A stretch of 64,000 nucleotides of DNA from Patescibacteria group bacterium. GTDB lineage: Bacteria > Patescibacteriota > WWE3 > UBA101185 > UBA10185. Shown here piece by piece: positions 3,867 to 33,472 of this stretch. Each line of letters starts with the position of its first letter. The first letter of the stretch is position 1. The stretch is taken from the NCBI GenBank assembly GCA_018825365.1, contig JAHJEV010000001.1, positions 57,601 through 121,600 on the forward strand, given 5' to 3'. Under the pieces are notes generated by a model. The model did not search any database. It saw only the letters and a program-made list of their open reading frames with translations, and was not told the DNA's origin. The position numbers and the translations under genes were made by a program.

Positions 3867-3912
3867 GAGAATATTCTAACACCTGAAGGATTAAAAATTA
3901 ACAAAGCGAGGT

Positions 3913-4937: not shown

Positions 4938-4957
4938 CTAATTATTGGAAAAAGAAA

Positions 4958-4982
4958 GGTCCGCCTGTCACGGACCTTTTTT
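4958..4982. terminator. Bidirectional rho-independent terminator (between the small ORF and the dnaK 3' end)
   Basis: GGTCCG-cctgtca-CGGACC followed by TTTTTT. An A-run precedes the hairpin, so it also reads as a terminator on the minus strand. Confidence 0.6.
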
Positions 4983-5001
4983 AGTTCTTCCTAAAAAGGA
5001 T

Positions 5002-6882: not shown

Positions 6883-6895
6883 AAAATCCTCCTTT

Positions 6896-7345
6896 TTATT
6901 CCTGGCCGACAATTACCTTTGCCGGTCGTAATAACTTTCCATTTAATAAATAACCTCTTAGTATAGTTTTCAAAACTTTGTTTTTCTCTCCTTTTTTGGT
7001 TTCTACAGCCTCCATAGTTTCGTGATCAAATTCCTTTCCTTCGGCTTCTACTTCCTGTACCCCCATACTGATAAGTGTTTTTCTAAACTCTCTTAATGTA
7101 AGTTCCAGACCTTTATCTTTAATATGTTTCTCGATTTTTTCCAAGTTATCCAAAAAGGGTAGGAACTCTTCGACCGTTTGTTTTTTTACATAAAAAACTA
7201 ATTGTTCTTTGTCTTCAGCTATTCTTTTTTCAAGATTTTTGTAGTCGGCTAAAGCTCTTTTCCAATTGCTTTCCAGATCAGAAACTTTCTGTCCAAATTC
7301 CTTAATTTGTTTGTGGTATCTCTCTAATTTATCTTTTTCTTTCAT
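6896..7345 (-). CDS. grpE: Nucleotide exchange factor GrpE
   Basis: 149 aa. Coiled-coil N-terminus and a GrpE-like C-terminus. Sits immediately upstream of dnaK in the canonical hrcA-grpE-dnaK order. Confidence 0.85.
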
Positions 7346-7372
7346 ATGAATTTCTGGGCAGTAAATTGGCTT

Positions 7373-8095
7373 TTACCAAGAACCCCCAAGTTCCTCTAAA
7401 AGTTTTTTTGTATACTTAACAATTGGGATTATTTTTTGGTAGTCTAGTCTTGATGGTCCAAGAATGGCTAGGAAACCTCCCTTGTCCCCCACTTTGTAGG
7501 GCGTGAATATAATTGTTGATTTTGTAAGGTTTTCTACGGGGATCTCATCACCAATTAGTGTGTAGATTTCTCTTCCTGGGGCCACACTCTGGAAAATTCT
7601 ATCTAAAATTTCGTAGCTGTCTAATATTCTTAGTGCTGATTTTGCTATATCTATGTCCCAAAATTCTTTATGCTCCAAAACATTTACTGTCCCCGCAGAA
7701 GTTACGAACGCTTCGTCAGTTGTAGCTATAGATAAGCATCCGGTTGCCTCTGCCATAGCAAGAGTAGTTTCTCTCAAAAGTTTTTCCATCTCAAATCTAT
7801 TTGTCCAAAGTCTTTGTTTTAATGCGACTTCTTGTAAAACAGGAAGCTCTTCTTCCTGCATAAGTTCGTCTATATACATTCGATAAGCCATTTTTGTAGG
7901 AACTCTTCCGGATGATGTGTGGAGCATTTCCAAAAATCCTTGGTCAATAAGTTTTGCCATCTCGTTTCTTATTGTGGCTGGGGAGCAATGGAGATTGTAT
8001 TTCTGAACTATCTCAACCGAGCCTACCGGTTCGGCCGTGTTTATATAATCGTCTATTATTGCTTGAAGCAATTGAACCTGTCTTTCGGTCAACAT
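7373..8095 (-). CDS. hrcA: Heat-inducible transcription repressor HrcA (compact)
   Basis: N-terminal 'LTERQVQLLQAIIDDYINTAEPVGSVEIV...ATIRNEMAKL' winged-helix typical of HrcA. Operon context with grpE-dnaK. At 240 aa it is shorter than typical HrcA. Confidence 0.8.
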   Translation of the reverse strand: MLTERQVQLLQAIIDDYINTAEPVGSVEIVQKYNLHCSPATIRNEMAKLIDQGFLEMLHTSSGRVPTKMAYRMYIDELMQEEELPVLQEVALKQRLWTNRFEMEKLLRETTLAMAEATGCLSIATTDEAFVTSAGTVNVLEHKEFWDIDIAKSALRILDSYEILDRIFQSVAPGREIYTLIGDEIPVENLTKSTIIFTPYKVGDKGGFLAILGPSRLDYQKIIPIVKYTKKLLEELGGSW

Positions 8096-8097
8096 AG

Positions 8098-8133
8098 TTA
8101 TCAGTATAGTATCACGAGTGCTAAGGTTGTCAA
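8098..8133 (-). promoter_or_regulatory. CIRCE-like inverted repeat overlapping a TTGACA -35 box upstream of hrcA
   Basis: Plus strand TTAtCAgTa-N9-GAGTGCTAA (8098-8124) against the CIRCE consensus TTAGCACTC-N9-GAGTGCTAA. One half-site is perfect; the other matches 6/9. On the minus strand TTGACA (8128-8133) sits 3 nt upstream. The hrcA ATG follows directly, suggesting a leaderless or short-leader transcript. Confidence 0.45.
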
Positions 8134-8143
8134 GAGAATTTGT

Positions 8144-9925
8144 TTACTTTGTGAGTATTTGTCTGAAAGCTTCTTGAGGAATATCGACCTGGCCTATTTT
8201 TTTCATTCTAGCCTTGCCTTTTTTCTGAATATCTAAAAGCTTGTCTTTTCTTTCTCTGTGCCCCCCAGACATTTTTGCCAAAACATTTTTTCGTAGTGCT
8301 GGGATATCTTCTCTTGCAATTATTTTTCCGCCAACAGTGGCTTGAAGTGATACAACGAATTGCTGCTTTGGTATTACACCTTTTAGTTTTCTAATTAATG
8401 ACTTCCCAATTTCGTCGGCCCTTGCCCTTAAAACTATGTTTGAAAGCGGCTCGACCATTTTCCCGTGCACTAAAACATCAAGTTTTACCACGTCGACAGT
8501 TTGGTAATCTGAAAATTCATAATCAAGACTTGCGAATCCTGAGGATATCGTTTTTAGGTCATCAAAAAAGTTATAGATAAGCTCGGATAGAGGGAGTTCG
8601 TATTCAAACACCACGTTTTGTTCATTTGGGTACTCCATTTTTTTCAAAACTGCTCTCCTATCTTTACAAAGATTCATTATTGACCCTGAGTATGCAGCCG
8701 GGGTTATTATCGTACAAAAGATCCAAGGCTCTTGTATTTCAAGAATGCTTGATCTATCGGGAAGTTGAGACGGAGTCCTCACATATAGTAGTTCGTTTCT
8801 TGTATTTGTGACTTTGTACTCAACGGTTGGCGTGGTTGATATCAAATTTAAATCATATTCCCTCTCAAGCCTTTCTTGGATTATCTCGGCATGTAAAAGT
8901 CCTAAAAACCCGCATCTAAAGCCAAACCCTAGGGCTGAGCTACTTTCGGGTTCAAAACTCAAGGATGAGTCTGAAAGGAAAAGTTTTTCCAAGGCGTCTC
9001 TTAGCTGGTTTGATTTTGATGTATCAATCGGGTACATGGATACAAACACGAAAGGTTTGATTTCCTTGTAACCCGAGAGTGGTTTTGAAATGTCATCTTC
9101 CCAGCATACGGTGTCACCAACTTTTACTGCGTGTATGTCCTTAAATCCCGTTGCGATGTACCCGACCTCTCCTGTTTTGAGTTCGTTTGTTTTTACTCTT
9201 TTAAGTTTAAAGTACCCTGCTTCTTCTGGAGAGTAGATTTTTTTTGTTGCTAAGAATTTTATTTTTCTTTTGCCGTTAAGTATAAATTCACCATCAACGA
9301 CTCTTATTGTTGCAACAACCCCCAGGTACTCGTCATAAGATGAGTCAAATACCAAAGCTCTTGATGATGCGTTCTTATCACCTTGGGGATAGGGTACTTC
9401 CTTTATAATTTTTTCAAGCATGTCAGAAACTCCCTCTCCTGTTTTCGCGGATACTTTCAAGATGTCTTCTTTCTTAAACCCGAAAGTTTTAACCATATCG
9501 ATCTCAGTTTTTTCAATGTCTCCAATTCCCATATCAATTTTGTTTATAACGGGAATAATTTTTAAACCTGCTTCTTTTGCCTTGTAATAATTGGAAACCG
9601 TTTGTGCCTGGATACCCTGAGTTTTATCAACAAGCAATACTGCACCTTCGCATGCGGCCAGGGATCTGAAAACCTCGTACGTAAAATCAACATGTCCGGG
9701 AGTATCGATAAGATTTAGTTGATATCCCTTGTATTCCATTCTTATAGCCTTGAGTTTTATGGTTATTCCTTTTTCTCTTTCCAGATCCATTGAGTCTAGC
9801 GTTTGCTTTACGATGTCTCTTTGATCAATCGCGTGAGTTAACTCCAATAACCTATCCGCTAAGGTAGATTTACCGTGGTCTATATGGGCAATTATGCAAA
9901 AATTACGAATATGGTCCTGACTCAT
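8144..9925 (-). CDS. lepA: Elongation factor 4 (LepA)
   Basis: N-terminus IRNFCIIAHIDHGKSTLADRLLE, a G-domain, and a LepA C-terminal domain. 593 aa. Confidence 0.95.
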   Translation of the reverse strand: MSQDHIRNFCIIAHIDHGKSTLADRLLELTHAIDQRDIVKQTLDSMDLEREKGITIKLKAIRMEYKGYQLNLIDTPGHVDFTYEVFRSLAACEGAVLLVDKTQGIQAQTVSNYYKAKEAGLKIIPVINKIDMGIGDIEKTEIDMVKTFGFKKEDILKVSAKTGEGVSDMLEKIIKEVPYPQGDKNASSRALVFDSSYDEYLGVVATIRVVDGEFILNGKRKIKFLATKKIYSPEEAGYFKLKRVKTNELKTGEVGYIATGFKDIHAVKVGDTVCWEDDISKPLSGYKEIKPFVFVSMYPIDTSKSNQLRDALEKLFLSDSSLSFEPESSSALGFGFRCGFLGLLHAEIIQERLEREYDLNLISTTPTVEYKVTNTRNELLYVRTPSQLPDRSSILEIQEPWIFCTIITPAAYSGSIMNLCKDRRAVLKKMEYPNEQNVVFEYELPLSELIYNFFDDLKTISSGFASLDYEFSDYQTVDVVKLDVLVHGKMVEPLSNIVLRARADEIGKSLIRKLKGVIPKQQFVVSLQATVGGKIIAREDIPALRKNVLAKMSGGHRERKDKLLDIQKKGKARMKKIGQVDIPQEAFRQILTK

Positions 9926-14073: not shown

Positions 14074-14796
14074 TTAATTTTCCAAAATAGCTCTTACTTC
14101 TAGTCTTTCTGCTTTTGTTCCCGCCGGCCAACAGGTCATTAAAGTGATAGTTGATTCGTTAAGATACTTTGGTTTCCAGGGCTCTAGGGGTTTCACTTTT
14201 TCTGGTTTGAGGACAACTTGATTATCAACGATGTATTTTAATCTTTTATTGTTGTAGGTTATATAAATCTCGTCTCCCTGTTTTAAATCCCCAAGAGTTG
14301 AGAAAATGGTCTTGTAATTTTTTGGATTAAAAAACCATGGTAATACAGAATGACCAAAGATATATGAATTTCCGCTTTGACCAGGAAGAGAAGACCCTTT
14401 GTAGTGTCCAATGAATCCGTCTGGACTTGATCCATCAAAGTTAGTTTTAACCTTTGTGTTTTCGATCTTGAGCTTTGGGATGCTGATATAGAAATATTCG
14501 GGAACGTTTTGCTCATTTGATATGTCGGCAGTGTTTGTTTTTATTTCTGGGAAACTATAATCTCTAAATCCGGATGCCAGCCCTAAAATGGTAGATTCCA
14601 TGGGTTTTGCGACCTCGTTCTGAGTTTTGAAAGATATTAATGGTAATGCCACTTGAGTTCCCAATACGAGAAATCCCAATGCCATCAATCCGCCGGAGAG
14701 TATTCTAGTTCTGAAAAGGAAAGGGAGGTTAACCGATTTATATATCGGATCAAAAGATTCATCTTTTACATAAATTTTTGGTTTTGAGTCAGGCAT
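14074..14796 (-). CDS. Sortase family transpeptidase
   Basis: Membrane anchor. Conserved His (IFGHSV), catalytic Cys in 'TLMTCWP' (the TLxTC motif), and a downstream Arg (RLEVRA). Confidence 0.75.
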   Translation of the reverse strand: MPDSKPKIYVKDESFDPIYKSVNLPFLFRTRILSGGLMALGFLVLGTQVALPLISFKTQNEVAKPMESTILGLASGFRDYSFPEIKTNTADISNEQNVPEYFYISIPKLKIENTKVKTNFDGSSPDGFIGHYKGSSLPGQSGNSYIFGHSVLPWFFNPKNYKTIFSTLGDLKQGDEIYITYNNKRLKYIVDNQVVLKPEKVKPLEPWKPKYLNESTITLMTCWPAGTKAERLEVRAILEN

Positions 14797-14798
14797 TG

Positions 14799-15500
14799 TT
14801 ATGAGTTTAGCACCTTTTCTATGGCCATCGGAATCAGAAGTTCTTCACTAATCTCCGAAAGTTTTGATTTCATATCAATAATTCTAAGTTCTTCAAATAT
14901 TTCCTTGATTTGATTTTCTGTAAATAAGTTTGCCTGTGATAAAGCTTTTCGTTTTACGAAATTATGTAATTTGGAAAAGGAGGCTGACGAGAATTTAGCC
15001 GAAGACAGAGTTCTTAGTCCATAGAAAAACATCGATAATATCTCAAAAGATGAAACTTGGTCTTTCAGAAGTTTGGAAAGTTCTGAGTAAGCTTTTTCTC
15101 TTTGTCTATAAAAAACAGCATCTACAAAAGCGAATATATTACTTTGGGGTACCATCTCGTTTGCATTTATCCTGGCTTTAAGTCTTTCCGCATTTTTAAT
15201 AAATATGTTAGTTTGTGGAAGGCTTTTCCCGGAGAGAATTATGATCGTAGTTGCGATGGGAGCTTTTTCCAGCATCTCGATATATTTATCCATATTTGTT
15301 TTCCCCGCCGAGGTAATATTCAATACCATAAATGGGGGATTGTTAAAAAGATCATTCGAATGGCTTTTTTCATAGATCTCCTCAGGTGTTACGTTTGTTA
15401 TATCTATCTCGATACGGGATTCTATGTTTAGTTTCTTTTGCTGGTTTTGAATAAGTATTCTGGATTTGGAAATGTCGTCACCGTGAACTATGTATATCAT
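14799..15500 (-). CDS. holA: DNA polymerase III delta subunit-like (HolA-like, compact)
   Basis: N-terminus 'MIYIVHGDDISKSRILI' resembles the HolA 'iyllyGeD' start. Alpha-helical C-terminus. 233 aa. Confidence 0.4.
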   Translation of the reverse strand: MIYIVHGDDISKSRILIQNQQKKLNIESRIEIDITNVTPEEIYEKSHSNDLFNNPPFMVLNITSAGKTNMDKYIEMLEKAPIATTIIILSGKSLPQTNIFIKNAERLKARINANEMVPQSNIFAFVDAVFYRQREKAYSELSKLLKDQVSSFEILSMFFYGLRTLSSAKFSSASFSKLHNFVKRKALSQANLFTENQIKEIFEELRIIDMKSKLSEISEELLIPMAIEKVLNS

Positions 15501-15509
15501 TGTTTCATT

Positions 15510-16655
15510 TTACTGCTTCTCACCAAAAATATATTTTTGCATATACGCATGAATTTGTGAAAAATCTCCGGTTCTTGGAATTAAAACCCACTGATCCTCG
15601 TAAAGCTGGGTATCTACAGGAGAGTATAAAAGTCCCCCTTCATCTGCCTCACTTGTGTTATCCAAAACAACCGAAACGGTTTTATCAAATTTAATCTGCT
15701 GGGAGAGAAGGTAAAAGCTTTCCAGTGTTTTTAGATCCATGTTTGTATCAACGTTTTTGGCATAAGCATCATACAGACCTTTTAACTTTGTAGGGTTGAA
15801 AAGAGTTTGTATAGATATTGCCTTGTCCTTTATAGATACAATTACTTTCTGTTGTCTTTTTGCTCTTGCAAAGTCTGTACCTTCGTCATTGTCTCCGTGT
15901 CTTGATCTTGCGAAGTCCAAAGCTGTTATGGGGTCCATTGTTTGAACCCCGGTTGTGAAAGAGATGGTTTTCCATCTGCACGGGAAGTCGTTCTCGGTAA
16001 GTTTGTCTGCTTCTTCCGGTTTCATTCCACAAAGACTGTTTTCCATACCTTCAACCGGATAGTACCTATCTGTGAATGCGGTATCGACATTAACTTCTAT
16101 TCCCCCCAAGACCTCTATTGCCTGTTCAAAAAGATCAAACGTTACTAATACGTGATAATGGATCGGAATTCCGGTGATTTCTTGTACTACTCTTTTTATC
16201 TCATCGGCGCCGCCAAATTCATATACGGCATTTAGCTTATTTGATTTATATAAAGTTCCCCCACATATGTCTGTGGTGCAGTTGTAGTTTGTTATCCACA
16301 AATCTCTGGGAAGGGAAACCATTACTATGTTGTTATCCACCGCTCCTACTGAAACTACCATCATGGTATCGGTAAGAACATGACCGCTTTCTGCTCCTGC
16401 ACCCCTTTTATCCGAGCCAAGAACTAAAATGTTTGTCCTCCCATCTGTTTCTAAAATATTGGCAGCGGAAACGTTCGCAATTATTGAGATGGGATTAAAA
16501 GCCTGCTTGATTTTCCCCCTGAATACGTAAAGTACTGTTCCGATAAGAAGAAGTATTACCACCAAAAGGATGAATTTAGAAAACCCCTTATTTCGTGGTT
16601 CGTTTACAACCATCTTTTTTTGTTTTGAAATGTCCGTATACTTCATATTCTTCAC
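15510..16655 (-). CDS. LytR-CpsA-Psr (LCP) family cell-envelope phosphotransferase
   Basis: N-terminal TM helix. 'NILVLGSDKRGAGAESGHVLTDTMMVVSV...SLPRDLW' matches the LCP core motifs. Confidence 0.7.
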   Translation of the reverse strand: MKNMKYTDISKQKKMVVNEPRNKGFSKFILLVVILLLIGTVLYVFRGKIKQAFNPISIIANVSAANILETDGRTNILVLGSDKRGAGAESGHVLTDTMMVVSVGAVDNNIVMVSLPRDLWITNYNCTTDICGGTLYKSNKLNAVYEFGGADEIKRVVQEITGIPIHYHVLVTFDLFEQAIEVLGGIEVNVDTAFTDRYYPVEGMENSLCGMKPEEADKLTENDFPCRWKTISFTTGVQTMDPITALDFARSRHGDNDEGTDFARAKRQQKVIVSIKDKAISIQTLFNPTKLKGLYDAYAKNVDTNMDLKTLESFYLLSQQIKFDKTVSVVLDNTSEADEGGLLYSPVDTQLYEDQWVLIPRTGDFSQIHAYMQKYIFGEKQ

Positions 16656-17323
16656 TCAAACTTTTTGGAGTAAGCACTTATTATATCTGCAAAAGTTTTA
16701 GGATCAAGGCTTGCGTTTCCAACCAAAACTCCGTCCAGCTTTTCTATTTTTGAAAGTTCTCCGATATTGGTTTCATTTACGGAGCCTCCATATATTAAAG
16801 TGGAGGTGCTGGGGAGTTTCTTTCTTATTTCTCCCACTGTTTTTTCGATTTCTAGTGTGCTTTTAACGTTATAAACCCCATTTTTTGATATGTTTTTAGA
16901 ATCTTCCCAGACAAATATGCAGTTTTCTGAATATAAATCTTTAAGACCTCTCGGATTTACGAAACAGATAATAGGTGTAATGCCTTCTTTTAGACAAGCA
17001 TTTCTCTTTTTGATCACCGTTTTTTGATCTTCTTTTCTTTCGCTATGGCCTATTATCGCGTATTTACAGAATGCTTTTAGTTGAAAGGCACCTGTTTCTC
17101 CTGTGTGCGCGCCTTTTTCCTCAAAGGATACATCCTGAGAAGATAGTTTAAGTGAGGTTTTTTGCGAGAGTTCAAATATTGCCGGTATGTGTACAAAACT
17201 TGGTGCTAGAATCACTTCGACTGCCGGTGTTACACAGGCTTGGAGTTCTGAAAACCCGGCAACCCACTTCGTCAGGTCTTCAAAGTTCATATTCATTTTC
17301 CAGTTAGCGATTATGTATTTCAT
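16652..17323 (-). CDS. tpiA: Triosephosphate isomerase
   Basis: 'IIANWKMN', 'IGHSERK' and 'YGGSV' motifs. Confidence 0.9.
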   Translation of the reverse strand: MKYIIANWKMNMNFEDLTKWVAGFSELQACVTPAVEVILAPSFVHIPAIFELSQKTSLKLSSQDVSFEEKGAHTGETGAFQLKAFCKYAIIGHSERKEDQKTVIKKRNACLKEGITPIICFVNPRGLKDLYSENCIFVWEDSKNISKNGVYNVKSTLEIEKTVGEIRKKLPSTSTLIYGGSVNETNIGELSKIEKLDGVLVGNASLDPKTFADIISAYSKKFE

Positions 17324-17324
17324 C

Positions 17325-18173
17325 TTATAAAGAAAGCTTTCTTATTGTGTCCTCAATTAATTTCGGTAAGTTTTCCACGTCCTCGTGGGTGTGATTATAA
17401 CCCAAAACATTAAGACATGAAAAAACAATTCCGATATCAGTATATATTTTATCTGCAAATTGGCAGGCAACAAGACTGTCTATTAAAACATTTCCTCCTA
17501 TCTCGCCAACTCTTGATTTTCCGCATCCCATCGGACAGTTTGAACAGGAAGGGTAGACGCCCCTTTCAACTCTAAGATCAGAAGTTCTTGCAAGTATTGT
17601 TTTATATAATCTTTGATATTCTTCAAAATTTTCCGGGGAGTATACTTCGGTTCCTGTTATTACAAGGCCTTTTAGATTTTTTTGGACGAACGCCTTCTCT
17701 AGATGGTTTTCAGGAGTAGTAAAATAATTGTCCAGGAGAGTCTTATTGTTTTCGTGTCCAATTACACTTCTTTTTCCCGGAAGCCCCAAAGATCGAAGGT
17801 CCATAGCCTCGCCGTGAAAGGTCGTTTTAGTGTTTAGTATTTCTACTACCGTTTTCTCTTCCGCCTTTTTGCATATCACGATTGCGTCGATTCCTGCGAA
17901 TCTCATTCTAAGAGAAAGACTTCCGCCGATATAAAGGTCCTCAATTGAGCCTTCATCATTCAAAACCACAGCCGTTTTTGATGCAAAAGGAAAAAATCCG
18001 TTTAGAGGCCCAATTGCAAAGACAACAGGTTCCTTGTCGGCATAAATTTCAAGAAGCTTTAAACCTAACCCAACACCCCCAAGGTATTTATTTAGGTCAA
18101 CAAAGCTGTTAACATCGGACTCTTTTTTAGCTAGATCTATTACCAAGACTTTTTTAGCCGATAAATCAATCAT
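17325..18173 (-). CDS. Truncated aldehyde:ferredoxin oxidoreductase family protein (AFOR N-terminal domain plus CxxCxxxC only)
   Basis: 'GGVGLGLKLL...PVVFAIGPLNGFFPFASKTAVVLNDEGS...GGSLSLRMRFAGIDAIVICKKAEEKTVVEI' aligns to the AOR N-terminal domain. 'CSNCPMGC' matches the AOR [4Fe-4S] ligand motif. At 282 aa there is no room for the pterin-binding domains. Confidence 0.55.
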   Translation of the reverse strand: MIDLSAKKVLVIDLAKKESDVNSFVDLNKYLGGVGLGLKLLEIYADKEPVVFAIGPLNGFFPFASKTAVVLNDEGSIEDLYIGGSLSLRMRFAGIDAIVICKKAEEKTVVEILNTKTTFHGEAMDLRSLGLPGKRSVIGHENNKTLLDNYFTTPENHLEKAFVQKNLKGLVITGTEVYSPENFEEYQRLYKTILARTSDLRVERGVYPSCSNCPMGCGKSRVGEIGGNVLIDSLVACQFADKIYTDIGIVFSCLNVLGYNHTHEDVENLPKLIEDTIRKLSL

Positions 18174-18436
18174 TTAGCTTGGTTCTCCACCTCATCAACT
18201 ATTTCCAGCACACTTGTGGGGCAGATCTCGCAAATTTTATCAATATTAAGCATGTTTAGGCGCGGATCTATTTCCACACTATTAACCAAAGTTTGTGGAT
18301 CTTTACCTTTTTTCCTGAATATTCTAATTAAAGATTCTTCCAAGCCTACCTTTTTCAGTTGTCTCTGAGCTTCAAGAGAGCACAACTCGCACCCGTTGCA
18401 TTTATCGACTTGTGTTGCTTTAAGTGTTTTTGACAT
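18170..18436 (-). CDS. [4Fe-4S] ferredoxin
   Basis: 88 aa. 'CNGCELC' plus 'CEICP' gives the CxxCxxC...CP pattern. Overlaps the AOR-like gene by 4 nt. Confidence 0.6.
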   Translation of the reverse strand: MSKTLKATQVDKCNGCELCSLEAQRQLKKVGLEESLIRIFRKKGKDPQTLVNSVEIDPRLNMLNIDKICEICPTSVLEIVDEVENQAK

Positions 18437-19407
18437 TAGTTTAAGGCTGTTATGCCGGGAAGAGTGCCTTCTGCCAAATACTGAAGCATGGCGCTTCCGC
18501 CGGTTGACACGAAACTAAATTTATTCAATAAACCAAGTTTATCTAGGGCGCTTATTGTATCTCCGCCTCCGACTAGCGAGTAAATACCTTTTTCTTCTGT
18601 TTCTTTTGCTATTTCAAGAGCTATTTCTCTTGTTCCCACAATAAATTCTTCTTTTTCGTACATTCCCAACGGTCCGGCCCAAAGAACTGTTTTTGCGGTT
18701 CGAATATATTTTTTAAAGTCATCTATAGTTTCGGAGTCGATATCCGTTGATTTTAGGTCTATATTACGGGAAATAATTAGGTTTCGAGGAATTTCTTTAC
18801 TCCAACTGGCAGAAAGAAGCGAACTGAGAAGCACAAAGTCCGCCATCGCAAGTAATTTGTCTATTACAGGAATTTTACTTTCAGGTTTTGCTCCTCCTAT
18901 TATCACAATAAGTGGTTTTTCAGGTGTTTTTACTATTTTGTTCAATACTTCAATCTCTTTCTGGAGCCTAAAACCGGCATAAGAAGGTAGTATTTTTGGT
19001 AATTCTACAATTGAGGTGTGTTCTCTGTGGTCGTTGCCAAAGCTTTCGTTTACATACATTTCTGCTTTTGAGGCTAGTTCTTTTGCAAATTCTGGATCTT
19101 TTTCCTCCTCTCTTGGGTCAAATCGAAGATTCTCAAGGATCTCAAATCTGTTCTCACCAAGTTTTTCATTAAAATAGGGAAGAAAGTGTCTGGTGCTTAG
19201 TTTTTCAATGACCTGACCTTTGGGTCTCCCAACGTGCCCCGCTATTAAAGGAATTCCGCCTTTTTCTATAATGAATTTAAGGGTTTCTAACAAATTATCC
19301 AGTCTGAAGGTCTCTGCGATGGTCCCGTTTTCAATTGGAACGTCTATGTCACATCGAACGAAAACTCTTGTGCCTGATTTAATGGGTGCTTCTGATAAAG
19401 ATTTCAT
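18436..19407 (-). CDS. pgk: Phosphoglycerate kinase (compact)
   Basis: 'RVFVRCDIDVP', 'GHVGRP', 'GGAKPESKIPVI', 'GGGDT' and 'STGGSAMLQYLEG' motifs. 323 aa. Confidence 0.9.
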   Translation of the reverse strand: MKSLSEAPIKSGTRVFVRCDIDVPIENGTIAETFRLDNLLETLKFIIEKGGIPLIAGHVGRPKGQVIEKLSTRHFLPYFNEKLGENRFEILENLRFDPREEEKDPEFAKELASKAEMYVNESFGNDHREHTSIVELPKILPSYAGFRLQKEIEVLNKIVKTPEKPLIVIIGGAKPESKIPVIDKLLAMADFVLLSSLLSASWSKEIPRNLIISRNIDLKSTDIDSETIDDFKKYIRTAKTVLWAGPLGMYEKEEFIVGTREIALEIAKETEEKGIYSLVGGGDTISALDKLGLLNKFSFVSTGGSAMLQYLAEGTLPGITALN

Positions 19408-19492
19408 GTGAATATTTTAGCATTAATTGAAGTTTGACATGGGTGTTTCACTGAGGTATATTCTGAAAAAACCTATAGAAAAGGAGCATCAA

Positions 19493-19795
19493 ATGGATAA
19501 CTTAAATATTCGTGTCTATAAGGCCGTTTTTCCCGACGGCAGTTATTCTTTCCAATGCAAAACGAAGGACGAGTTTGGAGTAACAAGTATGTCGAACATG
19601 GAGCTGTTGGTTGGAGAGGTAGTGGATAACATACACTTCCTTTCCGCTTCTTGTCATGACGGCAAACTCGGTAATATATCCATCGACTTTCGCCCCTATC
19701 ATGATATAGAATGCTCGGGCGCTAAGCCAAGGCTTTGTATGCCTCTTACCGAGGGAAAGATCAAAACTTTTTGGGGTATTTTTATAACAAAGTAA
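19493..19795 (+). CDS. Hypothetical Cys-containing small protein (orphan)
   Basis: AAGGAG RBS 7 nt before ATG at 19493. About 100 aa. GC above the local background. Followed by a 9-bp stem hairpin (AAGCTAGAA...TTCTAGCTT). Confidence 0.3.
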   Translation: MDNLNIRVYKAVFPDGSYSFQCKTKDEFGVTSMSNMELLVGEVVDNIHFLSASCHDGKLGNISIDFRPYHDIECSGAKPRLCMPLTEGKIKTFWGIFITK

Positions 19796-19884
19796 CCGTT
19801 CTCCGAAGCAAAGCTAGAACACGCTGCAACAACAGGTGAAATTTCTAGCTTTCTTTTGTTTTCGGTTGCTGCTTTAGCCTGGGG

Positions 19885-20961
19885 TTATTCTGCCATCATG
19901 ACAGCCATTTCCACAAGTCTGCAGCTGTAACCCCATTCATTGTCGTACCAAGCAAACACCTTAATAAGGTTCCCATCGATGACCTTAGTCATCGTGAGAT
20001 CAGCAATTGCCGAGTATGTATTTCCGATAATGTCCGAAGAGACAATTGGCTCGTATGTGACTTGGAGTACATCTTTGTAAATCGGATTTTTTGAGGCATC
20101 TTCTAAGGCCTTGTTTACCTCATCGACAGTTACATTTTTTTCTACCAAGGCAGTAATGTCGGAAATAGAACCGGTCATTACAGGAACTCTCAAAGAAACG
20201 CCATCAAACTTCTCTTTTAGATTGGGCAATGCTTCAACCGTCGCATCCGCGGCCCCTGTTGTTGTAGGGATGATGTTGTATCCGCTTGCTCTTGCTCTTC
20301 TTAAGTCAACTTTTTCTCCGAAGGGTGGGCTATCTGCAACATTTTGATTGTTCGTTATTGCGTGGATAGTACTCATTCCTGCTTTTAATATCTTAAATTC
20401 CTTGTCAAGAATAGCTAGGATTGGAGAAATGCAGTTTGTTGTGCAGGATGCGTTTGAGATTGCGTTTTGGCCTAAATACTGAGAATCGTTGACGCCTTTC
20501 ATAAAGGTTTGAATAGTTCCGCCTTTTGTTGGAGCTGAAACCACAACCTTTTTGGCACCTGCTTTTATATGTTCAAGGGCGGAATCGTCTTTTGTGAACC
20601 TTCCGGTACATTCCAACACAACATCTATGTTAAGTTCCCTCCATGGAAGTTTTGTCGGATCTTTTTCTGAAATAACTAGAGTTTTTTTACCTTCCACGAC
20701 AATGTAATTTTCACTACCTTTAATATCAAAGAAATCTTTTTCACCTCTGTTATCTTCAAGTTTTATCTTTTTTCTGTCTTCTTCAAGCCAAATTTCTTTT
20801 CCATATACGCCGTACACCGTGTCGTACTTGAGTAGGTGAGCCAAAACTCGGGGATTTGTCAGATCGTTGATAGCAATAACATCTATTCCTTTACCGTGGG
20901 CGATCTTAAAGGAGGATCTTCCTATTCTTCCAAAACCATTGATTGCAATTCGGGCAGTCAT
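19885..20961 (-). CDS. gap: Glyceraldehyde-3-phosphate dehydrogenase
   Basis: 'INGFGRIGR' and active-site 'SCTTNC'. 358 aa. Confidence 0.95.
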   Translation of the reverse strand: MTARIAINGFGRIGRSSFKIAHGKGIDVIAINDLTNPRVLAHLLKYDTVYGVYGKEIWLEEDRKKIKLEDNRGEKDFFDIKGSENYIVVEGKKTLVISEKDPTKLPWRELNIDVVLECTGRFTKDDSALEHIKAGAKKVVVSAPTKGGTIQTFMKGVNDSQYLGQNAISNASCTTNCISPILAILDKEFKILKAGMSTIHAITNNQNVADSPPFGEKVDLRRARASGYNIIPTTTGAADATVEALPNLKEKFDGVSLRVPVMTGSISDITALVEKNVTVDEVNKALEDASKNPIYKDVLQVTYEPIVSSDIIGNTYSAIADLTMTKVIDGNLIKVFAWYDNEWGYSCRLVEMAVMMAE

Positions 20962-25002: not shown

Positions 25003-27300
25003 TTATTCCGGGTTGATTGAAAAATTCTCGGCATCCGCGGCCTTGATTTGAAGCTGAAGTGCTTTGATCTCACCCTTGGTTGTCTTTAGCGTAATCACTC
25101 CGGCAACCTTAATCTTGTCCCGCCTCTCACCGTTGAGAAAGTCAAAAACATCCGAATCCAATTCGTCAAATGTCCAAACGTTAGTGTCGATACTCGGCAG
25201 GTCATAATCTGTGTCAAAAAAGTAAACCACGGGCAGATAGGGCTCCTCAGGATCCTGATCAGTGATTTCGATCAACACGCCCTGAACACCATCGCCGTGA
25301 ACATTTTTGATGTTGCGTGCGAGAACAACATCTTCCTCGACCTCGGTGTATTCGATGGCGTATTGCTCCGTATCTTTGGTATCAATTTCGACCTTTACCA
25401 ACTTTGCAGACCCGCCGTAGTCAACAATATCGACGAACCTTAGCGACTTGGTGGACCCCGGATCCTTCATCGCTTCGCACAAGTCTGTGTCTATTTCTGT
25501 GATATCCACTTCCTCGAACGACTCAGAAGATCTGCTTAAATCAACGGTTTCCCCATCGAAAAGGTACAATTGATCGGAGTACTCTTTATTCACAGGCTGT
25601 TTGGTAATCACAAGGACAAAGCCTTGGATATCATCACCATATTTTTCCTTCAGGACACGCTCGATCATAACACTATCATCAACTTCTTCTCCCTCGATAT
25701 CGAATATGTTGCACGCGTCGTCCGCGGTGATTTCAACCACCAGCAACCTGACTCCATCGCCCAGTGTTTCTACACCCACAATCTTGGCACGATTTTGATA
25801 GTCGGTTCCCATGAGGAATTCCTCAAGTGATGAGAATGTTCCATCCAGGCTTTGATCATCATGAGTGGAGTCGATATTTTCAAGACCACTTATGTCTTCT
25901 CCCTCGAATGGAAACACAAGATCGTTGTAGTCGATGTCTTTGGGCTGGTCTACGATCCTCACGTACACGCCCTGTACCTCATTTCCGTATTGCGCACGGA
26001 TTTTCCGCTCAATGATCTCGCTGTTTTCCAGCTCCTCGCCTTCAATACCGAAACGATCCGCGTCGTCAGCTCGGATATGGACTTCAAGCAGTTTTGAGAC
26101 ACCAAGGTATGTTATGATTTCTGCAAAAACCACCTCGGGCCGTTCCTGCTCACCACGGAAAATTTCTTCCAAGTCAGAATCCGACATGTTGTCGAGCTCG
26201 CGAATGTGAAATTCAGTACCTGAAGCTTCTAGGGCATCCAATGCCTGCACTGTCTCCTCATCGAAGGGATAGACTTCGTCTGGGTAGCAGTAGTTGTCAG
26301 GGACGTCAATGATTTTGACAACAAGTCCCCGAACTGACGAGTTCCTTGCTAAGATTTCTCGGACACGTTTTACAACGACCGCACTGGTCTCGACTTTCTC
26401 GTACGGAAGGTCATATTCCTCAGCCGCTTCTACATCTATTTCGATCTTCAGTAGCTGCACAACGTTTGCAAAGTTGACCAGTCCGACGATTTTCGACAGC
26501 GCCGGTGTATCTCCAGTGAGAAGAGCGTTTGTCAGTTCGTGAGGCATATCATCAAAGCTGCGGAGATTTCCAGGATCTTCAACTTTCCGAAGCCTGTCAT
26601 CGGTCTCCGTATTGAAGGTATAGATCTGCGGAAGATAGACCACAGTATCAGGAAAACCTGTTACAACAAGGACTACGCCCTGAGTCTGCGAACCATATTT
26701 CCTTCGCAGTTTTCGGGAAATGCGGGTAGCCTCGTCCTGGTATTCCGGCAAGATGTCAAAAAGTTCGGCATCTTTGGCCTTAATACGAATCTCCAGAAGC
26801 AAAAAATTACCAACTCGCGTAGTTCCAAAGTCCTGTGCGAGGGTTTCGCCCTGATTGATAACGGTTTCGTCCCGTCTTTCTAGCATAGCTGCTAGTTCCG
26901 GATTAAGATCGGCCATTCTTTCTACATCATACTCGGTGAATCCTCCTTGTAAGCCCGTAGACCTTGGTGTACCTCCAAAAAGGTAGATTCTCGAGCGGTA
27001 TGACTCGTCTTCAGGCACATCGGTAATCGTAACCAAAATGCCTTTTACAAAGTTGCCGTACTTAGATGTGATGGCAGATACCACTGTCGAGATACTCGCG
27101 AGATTGCTGCTAACCACCTTTTTAATGGCGAAAGCAAACAGTCTTGCTAACACAAACGCTGGAAACGCAAACAGCAAGAACAGCACAAGAAGGGTTTCAG
27201 CAGTTACCTTCACGATCTCCCTTCCCACTAAGAACGCCAGAAATGCGTACACTGTCAGTACCAGCGTTCCGACGACAAGTAAAGTACTAAGTTTCTTCAT
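25003..27300 (-). CDS. Membrane-anchored acidic tandem-repeat protein (6 x ~115-aa repeats), unknown function
   Basis: 765 aa. Two N-terminal TM helices. A repeated module appears at least five full times plus partial copies. Each module has a core 'LL.VEI.A.DAE.F.IEGEE...IERKIR..YG..VQGV.V.I.D.P...Y.D.VY.FD.E'. Coding GC is about 50% against a roughly 35% background. AAGGAG RBS. Confidence 0.6.
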   Translation of the reverse strand: MKKLSTLLVVGTLVLTVYAFLAFLVGREIVKVTAETLLVLFLLFAFPAFVLARLFAFAIKKVVSSNLASISTVVSAITSKYGNFVKGILVTITDVPEDESYRSRIYLFGGTPRSTGLQGGFTEYDVERMADLNPELAAMLERRDETVINQGETLAQDFGTTRVGNFLLLEIRIKAKDAELFDILPEYQDEATRISRKLRRKYGSQTQGVVLVVTGFPDTVVYLPQIYTFNTETDDRLRKVEDPGNLRSFDDMPHELTNALLTGDTPALSKIVGLVNFANVVQLLKIEIDVEAAEEYDLPYEKVETSAVVVKRVREILARNSSVRGLVVKIIDVPDNYCYPDEVYPFDEETVQALDALEASGTEFHIRELDNMSDSDLEEIFRGEQERPEVVFAEIITYLGVSKLLEVHIRADDADRFGIEGEELENSEIIERKIRAQYGNEVQGVYVRIVDQPKDIDYNDLVFPFEGEDISGLENIDSTHDDQSLDGTFSSLEEFLMGTDYQNRAKIVGVETLGDGVRLLVVEITADDACNIFDIEGEEVDDSVMIERVLKEKYGDDIQGFVLVITKQPVNKEYSDQLYLFDGETVDLSRSSESFEEVDITEIDTDLCEAMKDPGSTKSLRFVDIVDYGGSAKLVKVEIDTKDTEQYAIEYTEVEEDVVLARNIKNVHGDGVQGVLIEITDQDPEEPYLPVVYFFDTDYDLPSIDTNVWTFDELDSDVFDFLNGERRDKIKVAGVITLKTTKGEIKALQLQIKAADAENFSINPE

Positions 27301-27413
27301 GTCTCTCTCCTTTTATATGGGATATGTAAAAGAGACTCTACTACGGGTTAATTTGCTTGTCAAACCTGTTTTATATGGTTAAATTTGTAGCGGGGTATTT
27401 GTGAGCTTATAGT

Positions 27414-27442
27414 TTGACAAACAAACTGGCATATGTTATAAA
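27414..27442 (+). promoter_or_regulatory. Promoter of the nfeD-flotillin operon (TTGACA-N17-TATAAA)
   Basis: TTGACA 27414-27419, 17-nt spacer, TATAAA 27437-27442. A mirror-image TTGACA for the divergent gene sits at 27358-27363 on the minus strand. Confidence 0.45.
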
Positions 27443-27495
27443 TCACGTTAACAATAAGGGAGCAATCCCATACTCATGTAGAAAAGGAGAGAACT

Positions 27496-28062
27496 ATGAT
27501 ACTTTCGTGGATTTTTGCTGGACTGATGATCCTTGGAGGCAGCTTTTTTGTATTTAGCCTGCTCCTCGGAGGCGTTGGAGACTCGCTCGGGGATATGTTT
27601 CACGGGCTTGATTCAGCGCTTGAAAGCATCGGGCTTGACTTAATACCTGACAGTTTCGAACACGGCTCGGGAGGCGCCGGATGCATTACCATCCTGGCCT
27701 TCATCACTGGGTTCGGAGCTGCTGGCTTGGTGGCATCATTATTCGGCGCGAACGCTTTAATTTGCGTTTTGGCCGGGATTCTATTTGGTGTCATCGTCGG
27801 CGGAATTTACGCTGGGATCACTAAACTGATCATGAGTCAGCAATCAAATTCGTCAACTACCGATGCAGACATAGTCGGCAAGACAGCGCATATAACGGTC
27901 GAAATACCGAAAGGCGGTGTCGGACAAGTAATGCTGACTACCCAAGGCGGAACCCGCCCCTACCCGGCCTGTTGTGTAAATAACCAGGCGGTCGTGAGAG
28001 GGCAATCCGTAAAAGTCATCTCTGTGGAAGGAGGCAGGTTATACGTAGAAAAAGTTGAGTAA
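27496..28062 (+). CDS. nfeD: NfeD-like membrane protein (short form, C-terminal OB-fold)
   Basis: Glycine-rich TM helices. C-terminal 'KTAHITVEIPKGGVGQVMLT...GQSVKVISVEGGRLYVEKV' is a beta-barrel. Sits immediately upstream of an SPFH gene. Confidence 0.7.
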   Translation: MILSWIFAGLMILGGSFFVFSLLLGGVGDSLGDMFHGLDSALESIGLDLIPDSFEHGSGGAGCITILAFITGFGAAGLVASLFGANALICVLAGILFGVIVGGIYAGITKLIMSQQSNSSTTDADIVGKTAHITVEIPKGGVGQVMLTTQGGTRPYPACCVNNQAVVRGQSVKVISVEGGRLYVEKVE

Positions 28063-28118
28063 ACTTTTACCGTAAGCTACCTCAATCATATTCAACTCTA
28101 GATAAAGGAGAAGGTTCT

Positions 28119-29633
28119 ATGGATCTAACTGGATTACTTCCTACGATCGCATTGGTGGTAGGAATCATTGTCGTACTCCTGGTAGCGTTCTTTGCAATTT
28201 CCAGGGCTACGCGTCTCTATCACCGTGTACCTCCCAGCCAAGTGCTGGTTGTCTTCGGACGTGGTAAAACACAGTTCGATGCAGACGGAAAACAGGAAAA
28301 GACCGGCGTACGTTTCATCACCGGTGGTGGCGGCGTAGTGCTTCCAATTCTGGAAGAATGCACCACTATCGACCTGACCGTAATGACGATTACACAGAAC
28401 AAGGACCGAGTGTATTCGACCGACGGTGTTGCTGTCAACCTCGATTGGGTTGCACAGGTGAAGATAGCTGAAGATCAGCATTCACTCGCAACAGCCGCGC
28501 GTACTTTCCTGGGAAAAAGTACGAACCAAATTGTCCAGGTGATTACCGAAACCCTTTCGACGAACTTCCGGGCCATCGTGGGCCAGATGACTGTTGAAGG
28601 CGTGCATCGTGATCGCGATGCCTTCGTCCAGGCTGTCCAGAAATTGGCAGCGGATGAAATGACGGCCATGGGTGTGCGGATTATTTCCATGGGAGTCAAA
28701 GAGATCACCGATGACCTCGGTTACTTTGAAGCAATGGCTGCTCCGAAGATCGCTGAAGTGATGCGCGATGCCAAAATCGCTAAATCTTTGGCCGACCAAG
28801 CTGCCCGCGAACAAGAGGCAAAATCTATGTTGACCGCTCGTGAAGCTGAACTTCACACTGATGAAGTTATCGCTCAGAAAGAACGCGATGTTGAGCTTCA
28901 GAAGGTCGATAAGAATAAGCAGGTCGGTCTCGCCCAAGCAGACGCGGACAAAGAAGTGCAAACCAAAAAGGCTCTGGCCGTTGCACAACAACAGGAAGCC
29001 GAAGTACTGGTTCCTGCTCGCGCTGCCAAGGAAGCTGTCGAGATCAATGCGAATGCGGCAAGGTCGAAGACAGAAACAGAAGCTGACGCAAATGCCTATT
29101 CGAAGAAGACAGCAGCTCAGGCTGAAGCCCAAGCTGTAACACTCACCGGACAGGCTACAGCCGATGCCAATAAGGCAAAACTGTTTGCTGAAGCTGAAGG
29201 CACGAGGGCAAATCTTCTCGCTGAAGCCGAGGGCAAGCAGAAGATCGCTGAGGCCACCGCCGCCGAAGGTGAAGTTAACCTTCGTCAGTTTGTTGCGGCT
29301 GAGCTTATCAAAGCTCAGCAGGCAACTGGCATTGCTTTTGCTGCTGCCATGGGCCAGATTGGTGAAAACGTCAGGATCGTTCAGATTGGCGATATTCCAG
29401 CCGAAAAGAACGGACTTCTCGGTATACTGCAACAGGCCCCGCTCATTGCTGTTCAGCTCAACGAGCAAGTCAAGGCCCTCACCGGCGGTATGTCGATCGA
29501 ACAGGTTCTTACACAGGTTGCTGGTACTCTCAAACTGGCTGGGAAAACCCAAGCAGATGTTAAGACACCGAGTAGCAACGAAGAATCTGCCGCTGACATT
29601 TCTGGAAAGAAAGGTAAGAAGCTGACAAAGTAA
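28119..29633 (+). CDS. floT: Flotillin-like SPFH/band-7 protein
   Basis: N-terminal TM helix, an SPFH domain, then long Ala/Glu-rich coiled-coil with 'AEAEG' repeats typical of flotillins (FloT/YqiK). 504 aa. Confidence 0.8.
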   Translation: MDLTGLLPTIALVVGIIVVLLVAFFAISRATRLYHRVPPSQVLVVFGRGKTQFDADGKQEKTGVRFITGGGGVVLPILEECTTIDLTVMTITQNKDRVYSTDGVAVNLDWVAQVKIAEDQHSLATAARTFLGKSTNQIVQVITETLSTNFRAIVGQMTVEGVHRDRDAFVQAVQKLAADEMTAMGVRIISMGVKEITDDLGYFEAMAAPKIAEVMRDAKIAKSLADQAAREQEAKSMLTAREAELHTDEVIAQKERDVELQKVDKNKQVGLAQADADKEVQTKKALAVAQQQEAEVLVPARAAKEAVEINANAARSKTETEADANAYSKKTAAQAEAQAVTLTGQATADANKAKLFAEAEGTRANLLAEAEGKQKIAEATAAEGEVNLRQFVAAELIKAQQATGIAFAAAMGQIGENVRIVQIGDIPAEKNGLLGILQQAPLIAVQLNEQVKALTGGMSIEQVLTQVAGTLKLAGKTQADVKTPSSNEESAADISGKKGKKLTK

Positions 29634-31637: not shown

Positions 31638-32573
31638 ATGGCAAGGCACGTTCTCCAGTCAGAACTTTGGGAAAAGTTTAAAAACAGCTACGGAACTCCC
31701 GCAGTGAGAGTAGGAAATGTCTTGTATACCAAACACAAAATACCATTTTCCTCTGACTTTTATGCGTATTCACCCCGAGTAAATCCTTTTGATATAGATT
31801 TTGATAGAGTTAAGGCTTCTTTGGAGGAAAACTCCTGCGTTGCAATTCATTTTGATGTTCCGAATGTTACAAAAGATAGCTCTGATTCGGAAAGAGCAAT
31901 CAATATTTTTAAAGATAGGTGCTCACCGTCTACAAGGGACGAATTTGCGAAGGGAAATTTTCTTTTAGATCTAACTAGGCCAGAGGAAGAGCTGTTGAAT
32001 AACATGCATAAGAAACACAGGTACAACGTTAAGTATGCACAGGGAAAGGGCGTGGTTGTAAGACAAAGCACGGATGACGCGGATTTTGATATTTTCTACA
32101 ATCTCTACTCCGAAACGGGTGGGAGAGCAAAGTTTTTTGCAAGGTCCAAAAACTACATGGAAAAAGCTTGGAGAACGTTTCGTGATGCGGGGTGTGGGCG
32201 TTTTGTAATAGCTGAGTTGGATGGCAAGCCTTTAACGGCTTGGTTGCTCATAAATTATGATAATGTCTTGTATTATCCCTATGGTGGGTCTACCAATGAA
32301 GACAGAAATGTTCAATCAAGCTGCCTGGTTGGATGGGAAGCAATTAAGTTAGGAAAGAAACTTGGATGCACATTGTTTGATATGTGGGGCGCTTCCGAGG
32401 ATATGAGTAATAAAAGTGATCCATATTTTGGATTTTCCCTATTTAAAGAGAAATTCGGCGCGAAACATGTTGTGTATATTCCCTCTTATGACTTTGTACT
32501 TAATGCCTCTGTATATAAGCTATTTACTGCAGCAAACGCTTTTAGATGGAAGCTGTTGAATTTATTGAGATGA
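31638..32573 (+). CDS. FemAB-family (peptidoglycan aminoacyltransferase-like) protein, paralog 1
   Basis: 311 aa. The C-terminal 'FKEKFGA' motif is shared with its downstream paralog. GNAT-like fold is predicted from the pattern alone. The assignment is tentative. Confidence 0.45.
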   Translation: MARHVLQSELWEKFKNSYGTPAVRVGNVLYTKHKIPFSSDFYAYSPRVNPFDIDFDRVKASLEENSCVAIHFDVPNVTKDSSDSERAINIFKDRCSPSTRDEFAKGNFLLDLTRPEEELLNNMHKKHRYNVKYAQGKGVVVRQSTDDADFDIFYNLYSETGGRAKFFARSKNYMEKAWRTFRDAGCGRFVIAELDGKPLTAWLLINYDNVLYYPYGGSTNEDRNVQSSCLVGWEAIKLGKKLGCTLFDMWGASEDMSNKSDPYFGFSLFKEKFGAKHVVYIPSYDFVLNASVYKLFTAANAFRWKLLNLLR

Positions 32574-33472
32574 CGCCAATTCAAGACATCAGGCAAAGTG
32601 AAAAATGGGGCCTTTATTTGAAGTCCTTGGGCTGGGAATATTCAAAAACGTCTTCTGGAATTTTGGTTGTTACTAAAAATATAAAAGTGGGAAGTGTTGC
32701 AAAAGTTCAAAGGCCCCAAAATCTAACCCAAAAAGATTTGAATGAAATAGATCAGATATGCAGAGAAAAGAAGGCACTTTTTGTTAAAATGGAGCCTTTT
32801 TGCTTTGAAGACACTAATCTTTTAGAACAAAACGGATATATTGCAAATACCAACCCTTTATCTCCACCATCAACTTTTTACATCGACCTTACAAAATCTG
32901 AAGAGGATCTTTGGAAAAACATCTCAGAAAGCGGACATTACTCAATAAATAGATCCAAAAGGGAAGAAACTAAAATGAGATTTTACCAAAATCCTCTGAT
33001 CGAAAAGCTTCAGCCTTACTTCAAAATGTGTCAGGAAACAGGGAGGAGAAATCGCTTTTTTATCCAGCCGTACAAGGATTTGCTTTCTAAAGTAAAGGTA
33101 TTCGGAAAAGACTCACACCTAATTTTGGCATACGATAAAAACGGAAATTTATTAAGCGGTAAGTTTTACTTGTGCCACAAAGATATGGTTTTGTATTCAA
33201 CCGGTGGCACATCTGCCTTAGGGAGGAAAGGTAAGGCGGGATACCAGCTTTTATGGGATTCAATTTTGTATTTTAAAGGTTTGGGGTACAAAGTTTTTGA
33301 CTTGGAGGGGAGAAGTGACGATAGATTTAAAGAAATTTCAAAAAACTGGGCCGGGTTTACTCACTTCAAAGAGAAGTTTGGTGCGGAAGTTATCGAATTT
33401 CCATATCCCTATAACAAATACTTTAGTCTGATTATGAAATTGATTGATAAGTTTTTTAAGATGCCTGTTTAA
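32546..33472 (+). CDS. FemAB-family (peptidoglycan aminoacyltransferase-like) protein, paralog 2
   Basis: 308 aa. Same architecture and the same 'FKEKFGA' motif as the upstream gene. Tandem duplicates. Confidence 0.45.
   Translation: MEAVEFIEMTPIQDIRQSEKWGLYLKSLGWEYSKTSSGILVVTKNIKVGSVAKVQRPQNLTQKDLNEIDQICREKKALFVKMEPFCFEDTNLLEQNGYIANTNPLSPPSTFYIDLTKSEEDLWKNISESGHYSINRSKREETKMRFYQNPLIEKLQPYFKMCQETGRRNRFFIQPYKDLLSKVKVFGKDSHLILAYDKNGNLLSGKFYLCHKDMVLYSTGGTSALGRKGKAGYQLLWDSILYFKGLGYKVFDLEGRSDDRFKEISKNWAGFTHFKEKFGAEVIEFPYPYNKYFSLIMKLIDKFFKMPV

Follow-up and report, generated by a model that had tools for sequence, protein, structure and literature searches.

The acidic repeat protein and its family

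The DNA analysed here (the window) is a stretch of 64,000 nt from a Patescibacteria group bacterium (assembly GCA_018825365.1, contig JAHJEV010000001.1, positions 57,601 to 121,600 of the forward strand). It encodes, divergently from an nfeD-flotillin gene pair, a 765 amino acid (aa) acidic repeat protein that is the founding member of a very small family. The open reading frame (ORF) specifies two hydrophobic helices followed by seven segments that can be aligned with each other:

25003-27300, minus strand: acidic repeat protein gene, 765 aa, stop codon at 25003-25005 (ORF list)
27223-27291, minus strand: transmembrane (TM) helix 1, aa ~4-26; Kyte-Doolittle hydropathy up to 2.63 in 19-residue windows; helix 6-28 in the AlphaFold2 (AF2) model
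27127-27195, minus strand: TM helix 2, aa ~36-58; hydropathy up to 2.54; AF2 helix 34-63
26935-27123, minus strand: R0, C-terminal half-unit (a2-b3-b4), aa 60-122; profile positions 67-102, E = 2.7e-8
26569-26928, minus strand: R1, full repeat, aa 125-244; hidden Markov model (HMM) score 116 bits; insertion between aN and b1
26218-26568, minus strand: R2, full repeat, aa 245-361; HMM 127 bits
25861-26217, minus strand: R3, full repeat, aa 362-480; HMM 135 bits
25519-25860, minus strand: R4, full repeat, aa 481-594; HMM 131 bits; also modelled alone
25171-25518, minus strand: R5, full repeat, aa 595-710; HMM 135 bits
25006-25170, minus strand: R6, N-terminal half-unit (aN-b1-b2-a'), aa 711-765; profile positions 4-57, E = 1.2e-7

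Translation starts at an ATG behind a strong Shine-Dalgarno (SD) sequence, with AAGGAGAGAGAC upstream, and the product is a 100% match to ABIJ82_03910, an NCBI protein annotated as 'hypothetical protein' from a metagenome-assembled genome (MAG) of a Patescibacteria group bacterium (GCA_043824185.1). Aspartate and glutamate make up 19.5% of the residues and lysine and arginine 9.7%, giving a pI of 4.32 and a net charge of -80 in the soluble part. There are two hydrophobic helices, with 19-residue window peaks at aa 7-25 and 37-55, and in the AF2 model the second TM helix (34-63) continues almost straight into helix a2 of the first repeat segment. An earlier note on this DNA, written from the sequence, had described a 765-aa ORF with a very acidic pI and a two-helix membrane anchor, as the ORF list, pI and hydropathy confirm.

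Parsing the protein with a repeat HMM built from ten units gives five complete units, of 116 to 135 bits each, and two half-units. The match at residues 63-119 (R0) covers profile positions 67-102 only and that at residues 707-765 (R6) covers positions 4-57 only. The array is thus six unit-equivalents, one of which is split, with its second half straight after the second TM helix and its first half at the C-terminus. As judged from the profile positions that they match, the two halves are exactly complementary. R0 can be aligned to the second half of each full unit, the chain ends in the a'-a2 loop of R6, and the split point corresponds to this acidic loop ('EGEE..D'). The six tandem repeats of ~115 aa proposed in the earlier note are therefore real, and six is the correct number of equivalents, but only five are complete and the sixth exists as two complementary halves. 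The relatedness of the full units is beyond doubt: their pairwise local alignments score 86 to 161 compared with shuffle means of ~28 to 32 (z = 12 to 22), and none of 200 shuffles equalled the observed score.

An exhaustive HMMER search with the repeat profile, run against 1.84 billion representatives standing for ~15 billion proteins, identified five true family members, P0001 to P0005, which are 753 to 776 aa long, have six or seven repeat matches each and are spread over four loci. The distribution is very patchy. Two further hits, P0006 and P0007, were rejected as spurious, their similarity being limited to a 28-aa 'KDEYGDNVSGVTV' motif within adhesin-like repeats rich in Asn, Ser and Thr. 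Word-indexed homologue searches, including one with the five-member profile, returned P0001 and P0002 only, a metagenome scan with A1 recovered only the Moranbacteria-type locus again, and a genome scan with the window flotillin also led only to that locus. P0002 comes from a Candidatus Moranbacteria MAG, and both loci that have a taxonomic name are from Patescibacteria. Loci L006 and L008 come from the samples SRR25469185 and SRR34018698.

All five members are collinear, with a TM hairpin, a C-half unit, five full units and an N-half unit, and all five terminate within a few residues after a 'DA..F.I' motif, at the same repeat position. The R0 half-unit is present in every member. In the other members the terminal halves cover profile positions 3-57/64-105 and 4-53/50-101, with weaker matches in P0004 and P0005. 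Between orthologues, which are 21 to 39% identical across loci, the terminal halves are about as well conserved as the full units (30 to 31% versus 30 to 45% identity). Four of the five members have a net charge of -74 to -91 and a pI of 4.2 to 4.3; P0005, with a net charge of -32, is far less acidic.

The units of one protein are on average 20% identical, and no tandem repetition of the gene is detectable at the DNA level. Across members, units at the same position are 24.7% identical and units at different positions 19.1%, consistent with mostly positional orthology, and the architecture, including the split, is therefore older than the divergence of the family. The old duplication suggested by the earlier note is borne out by these values, and its core motif agrees with the consensus derived here. 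Acidic residues do cluster at the start and end of each module, as had been noted, in columns before aN and after b4, and are also concentrated after b2 and in the a'-a2 loop; basic residues are located on a2. The conserved columns contain only G, A, L, I/V, Y and F and look structural, with no conserved His, Cys or Ser pattern across units or orthologues, which bears out the absence of a catalytic motif.

Predicted fold and comparison with known domains

The R4 unit, modelled alone by AF2 from an alignment of 25 units, has a predicted local distance difference test (pLDDT) score of 87.2, rising to 91 to 96 over residues 11-100, and a predicted template modelling score (pTM) of 0.59. Its elements (H11-16, E25-33, E37-44, H46-51, H62-74, E80-83 and E97-100) are in the order aN-b1-b2-a'-a2-b3-b4, and ~20 tail residues are disordered. 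The full-length model, from the five-sequence alignment, has a mean pLDDT of 76.6, with 80 to 92 in the repeat region, and a pTM of 0.43. The models thus predict an array of small alpha/beta domains, as the earlier note had anticipated. Alignment gaps across the 25 units occur in the linkers, the aN-b1 loop and the b3-b4 loop and almost never from b1 to b3, and the linker after b4 varies in both length and sequence. In the full-length model, the a'-a2 loops lie inside high-confidence blocks and the pLDDT dips occur in the linkers after b4. Because the single unit models as one confident body, the region from b1 to b3 is nearly gapless and the dips are in the linkers, we argue that the segment from aN to b4 is the structural domain, in which case the terminal pieces would be true half-domains.

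The unit has no detectable relative in sequence or in solved structure. Neither the whole protein nor any of the 25 units, each scanned against Pfam, NCBIfam and PADLOC, gave more than isolated sub-threshold noise (Zn_protease at 12.9 bits, and KH_DEAH11 at E = 0.019 in one of the 25 units). The top match of a profile search of PDB sequences was a de novo designed protein (E = 0.23), and the best Foldseek match of the full-length model in the PDB has an E of 0.32. The earlier note could not place the repeat in a known family and named BON, PepSY and YbbR as domains that would make it ordinary. All three are excluded by the Pfam models and the structure search: BON (PF04972) and PepSY (PF03413) matched in neither, and YbbR-like (PF07949), an all-beta repeat of ~85 aa, has no Pfam match and differs from the modelled unit, which has three helices and is therefore not an all-beta repeat.

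The sole recurring themes among the weak structural matches were POTRA domains and the ring-building motifs of PrgH/YscD from type III secretion systems. Both are likewise small alpha/beta domains arranged in tandem by a membrane anchor, as in the POTRA arrays of BamA and Toc75. POTRA (b-a-a-b-b, ~75 aa) was rejected, as there was no significant structural superposition on the BamA or Toc75 domains. The tunnelling fold (T-fold, bb-aa-bb) is found in GTP cyclohydrolase I, PTPS, DHNA and urate oxidase, where it builds closed rings; some chains carry it in tandem copies. The modelled unit has the same element order within ~115 to 120 residues, with an additional helix (H11-16) in front, and the structure search retrieved no T-fold protein. 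The closest likeness for the split is the velcro closure of beta-propellers and of circularly permuted repeat rings, in which terminal repeats are also partial and exactly complementary throughout a family. The likeness rests on the sequence halves, which here would complement each other; the propeller blade is four-stranded whereas the unit here is predicted to be an alpha/beta domain, and here the split point also bears the membrane anchor. A link to anti-phage defence is not indicated, as none of the three proteins encoded by the repeat gene and its nfeD-flotillin neighbours matches PADLOC at E <= 0.01, and there is no sign of a mobile-element origin since tblastn searches of phage and plasmid collections gave no match. 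We regard both the family and the fold of the repeat protein as new; at the system level, if the role proposed below is right, a module of known kind would have gained a new accessory. Caution is called for because genomes of the Candidate Phyla Radiation (CPR) commonly contain orphan families.

The divergent nfeD-flotillin genes and the other loci

The region adjacent to the repeat gene in the window, and the fourth locus of the family, contain the following features:

27301-27495, no strand: divergent intergenic region shared with nfeD-floT, with putative promoter function (sequence, promoter scan, inverted repeats I10 and I4)
27496-28062, plus strand: NfeD-like membrane protein of 188 aa that opens the flotillin operon; OB-type domain at the C-terminus
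28119-29633, plus strand: FloT-type flotillin, 504 aa; PF01145 (Band_7), 95 bits
29656-29687, plus strand: strong terminator-like hairpin with a stem of 14 bp and a T run after it; closes the nfeD-floT unit at the edge of the block of high G+C content at third codon positions (GC3)
967-8807 of locus L008: fourth locus, with tandem paralogues P0004 (753 aa) and P0005 (776 aa) directly after the gene for a 976-aa UPF0182 membrane protein

The NfeD-like protein matches PF01957 with 19.1 bits and its Moranbacteria orthologue with 28.3 bits, relative to a cutoff of 29.1; the match is C-terminal and covers the full 57-position model. The flotillin has an N-terminal TM helix, an SPFH domain and an Ala/Glu/Lys-rich C-terminal region, and matches NF058507 (FloT) with 230 bits (E = 5e-68) relative to an equivalog cutoff of 700. 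On these profile scores it is a FloT-like SPFH protein and not an equivalog. The gene order, nfeD and then flotillin, is that reported for bacterial operons (PMC11222466) and is the order of S. aureus nfeD-floA, B. subtilis yuaF-floT and E. coli yqiJ-yqiK. The few loci described here differ from these in adding a third, divergent gene of shared composition. In the flotillin literature searched, no partner like the repeat protein is described, and no dedicated, genetically linked partner other than NfeD.

The repeat gene is divergent beside an SPFH gene at three of the four loci. This linkage and the split unit, neither of which the earlier note recorded, are the two features that tell most about the protein. 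In two of these loci, the window and the Ca. Moranbacteria locus, the neighbours are nfeD-floT, in the same order at L001 and L009, and the outer flanks are wholly different, with topA and rpsB-tsf-frr in Moranbacteria and uvrD and ksgA in the window. Between the window and Moranbacteria, the repeat protein is 36 to 39% identical, the flotillin 71% and NfeD 57%, the last value being for the L009 orthologue. At the third locus (L006, 1-840, minus strand) the SPFH gene that diverges from P0003 encodes a protein with no N-terminal TM helix or signal sequence, and an in-frame stop is present 15 codons upstream of its ATG. A BLASTP alignment of this protein with the window flotillin extends over 96 residues at 18% identity and is not significant (E = 0.19). 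By its sequence it belongs to a soluble-type SPFH subfamily, the second that is paired with the repeat family. In Moranbacteria, the gene that comes directly after the repeat gene (L001, 7772-8158) shares the high GC3 of the module (0.56) and encodes a predicted small membrane protein of 128 aa, which has no counterpart in the window.

In the window, the GC3 values of the repeat gene, nfeD and floT are 0.507, 0.524 and 0.495, compared with 0.32 to 0.39 for 15 neighbouring genes. A GC3 offset of ~0.1 to 0.2 above the flanking housekeeping genes is present in all four genomes (window, 25003-29633; L001, 2953-8158; L006, 1-3331; L008, 967-8807). It persists despite the 21 to 39% identity of the orthologues, and could reflect repeated transfer among CPR lineages or an intrinsic property of the genes. 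No direct repeats or tRNA genes flank the high-GC3 block. Within the intergenic region, -35-like boxes of the GTTTGACAA-type are mirrored in a quasi-palindrome (27352-27365 and 27412-27425; 14 nt, 93% complementary), as are the AAAGGAGAGA-N-ATGA SD and start contexts (27297-27317 and 27479-27499; 21 nt, 81%). The SD symmetry is also present at L001 and L006.

Outside the CPR, the closest relatives of the flotillin are Chloroflexota proteins annotated as 'flotillin', at 50 to 53% identity, and their loci lack a repeat gene. For this reason, the nfeD-floT pair looks to have been horizontally acquired, with the repeat gene an addition that is confined to few genomes and apparently now travels along. 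In the closest Chloroflexota locus, from Anaerolineales (L011, 3108-8518), an extracytoplasmic function sigma factor gene, two unknown genes and a LiaF-like/Toast_rack gene precede nfeD-flotillin on the same strand, an envelope-stress type of context unlike that of the CPR module.

Elsewhere in the window, a bacterial 16S rRNA gene (62216-63634; 1287 bits) is followed by a group I intron match that overlaps its end and exceeds the gathering score (63588-63842; 55 bits), and this region (62216-63842) accounts for a rise in GC at the end of the window. Such rRNA insertions are known in CPR bacteria. The glycolytic genes for GAPDH, PGK and TIM, at 14074-20961, are interspersed with a 282-aa gene that matches only AFOR_N, the N-terminal domain of aldehyde:ferredoxin oxidoreductase, and two adjacent FemAB-family genes are located at 31638-33472.

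Membrane topology, possible role and alternatives

Two TM helices require both termini of the repeat protein to share one side of the membrane. Each of the five members has a positively charged N-terminal tail and a neutral to acidic loop between the helices. The segment after the second helix is positive in P0001 to P0003, and in P0004 and P0005 the positive charge begins a little further on; within 15 to 25 residues it is rich in lysine and arginine in all five. The window flotillin similarly has lysine and arginine residues after its TM helix. In S. aureus, the soluble (OB) domain of NfeD and the flotillin act on the cytoplasmic face (PMC11222466). Given this charge bias, read by the positive-inside rule, the flotillin residues, the side on which NfeD and flotillin act and the TM-less SPFH protein at L006, the repeats probably face the cytoplasm. 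The extracytoplasmic location proposed in the earlier note is not supported, as all five members have the positive-inside pattern and the SPFH partner at L006 has no TM helix. The N-terminus has no cleavable signal-peptide or lipobox pattern.

We tentatively propose, as a reading that may well be wrong, that the repeat protein is a cytoplasm-facing, membrane-tethered and loop-closed partner of the FloT-NfeD assembly. The N-terminal hairpin would tether an array of ~700 residues with a charge of about -80 to the cytoplasmic face. The conserved and exactly complementary halves, R0 and R6, would pair up as a sixth domain, either intramolecularly or across two chains. Closure within a chain would return the C-terminus to the membrane surface, making the chain a loop or ring; alternatively, protomers might be joined head to tail. 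The linkage, the co-transfer and the shared promoter region suggest that the array may work with the divergent NfeD-FloT module as a dedicated scaffold, occupant or client, and the scaffolding role offered in the earlier note is plausible. According to PMC12624060 and bioRxiv 10.1101/2025.06.14.659634, SPFH proteins form domed rings that abut the membrane and sequester membrane proteins, and a hairpin-anchored ring would fit this dome logic. In a more specific but improbable version, the repeat protein would be a pseudo-six-fold ring made by a single chain, with an alpha/beta fold not seen before and closed by the split domain at the point that carries the membrane hairpin, and would lie flat on the cytoplasmic membrane face as an occupant, lid or organiser of the flotillin-NfeD dome. 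We do not think that the protein is an enzyme or a surface adhesin.

Several observations weigh against a FloT-NfeD partnership or the structure suggested for it. The linkage evidence comes from four loci in total, and three of the four also have topA nearby, so that the adjacency may in part reflect shared ancestry rather than selection. At L008 there is no SPFH gene in the available 8.9 kb; the contig ends 50 bp past P0005, and this locus is therefore uninformative on SPFH linkage. The closest Chloroflexota flotillin loci have no counterpart of the repeat gene, and the flotillin therefore clearly works without a repeat protein. The repeat protein diverges much faster than its neighbours, as surface-exposed proteins often do. 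The charge bias around the hairpin is modest, and the first 15 residues after the second TM helix are not positive in P0004 and P0005. The full-length model reaches a pTM of only 0.43 and, in R6, a pLDDT of 57 to 76.

Some of these points would be explained if the repeats were extracytoplasmic, forming a surface array for adhesion or for binding divalent cations, for example in CPR episymbiosis, with the adjacency to flotillin incidental or the result of co-insertion. The extreme acidity (pI 4.2 to 4.3 and a net charge of -74 to -91 in four of the five members), the tandem-domain build, the fast divergence (36 to 39% identity versus 57 to 71% for the neighbours) and the very patchy distribution are all frequent in surface proteins and in keeping with this. 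We nevertheless regard it as unlikely, because the charge pattern of the hairpin predicts an N-in/C-in topology in all five members, there is no signal-peptide cleavage or lipobox pattern and no match to a known surface, adhesin or Ca-binding repeat, and the SPFH partner at L006 has neither a TM helix nor a signal sequence. About equally improbable is a cytoplasmic protein that functions independently of flotillin, as a tethered polyanion (a cation buffer, a nucleic-acid mimic or decoy, or a spacer) that has travelled with a transferred nfeD-floT pair. The shared anomalous GC3 could then be read as co-transfer, not co-function, and the Chloroflexota relatives without a repeat gene, the L008 genes with no visible SPFH gene and the lack of any charge complementarity, which was looked for between the repeat protein and FloT or NfeD, would all be accommodated. 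Such independence is harder to reconcile with the retention of SPFH adjacency at 21 to 39% identity, through full turnover of the outer flanks and with two SPFH subfamilies, and with the divergent, mirrored promoter elements.

The structural reading has its own competitor, in which the domain is read in the other phase, from a2-b3-b4 of one unit to aN-b1-b2-a' of the next. The protein would then be a linear string of six domains, with no split and no ring. This would place exactly six whole domains directly after the second TM helix with no remainder, and short extra strands (b0) in the linkers of the full-length model, for example at 480-482 and 595-597, do suggest contacts between units. We consider it somewhat less probable still than the two preceding alternatives: a single unit from aN to b4 models as one confident body (pLDDT 91 to 96, pTM 0.59), the 25 units have hardly any gaps from b1 to b3, with the a'-a2 loop in between, whereas the linker after b4 is variable, and the dips in confidence coincide with the linkers and spare the a'-a2 loop. 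It is very improbable that the protein is an unrecognised enzyme or part of a transporter. An active site might in principle be concealed in a new fold, and nothing positive points to one; there are no conserved polar or catalytic residues across units or orthologues, there are only two TM helices, and no family matches.

Irrespective of any partnership, a conserved split of one unit across the chain ends is unusual for an alpha/beta repeat, and the unit is a confidently modelled domain with no PDB match. The linkage to SPFH genes has been kept although the sequences have diverged extensively and the genomes, which in Patescibacteria are small, have been rearranged. If the repeat protein does form a ring that serves the flotillin dome, no structural partner of a bacterial flotillin besides NfeD would have been genetically hard-wired to it before. 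The roles and partners of bacterial flotillins are still debated and, if it is a partner, the repeat protein offers a handle on the relationship between flotillin and its clients or scaffolds.

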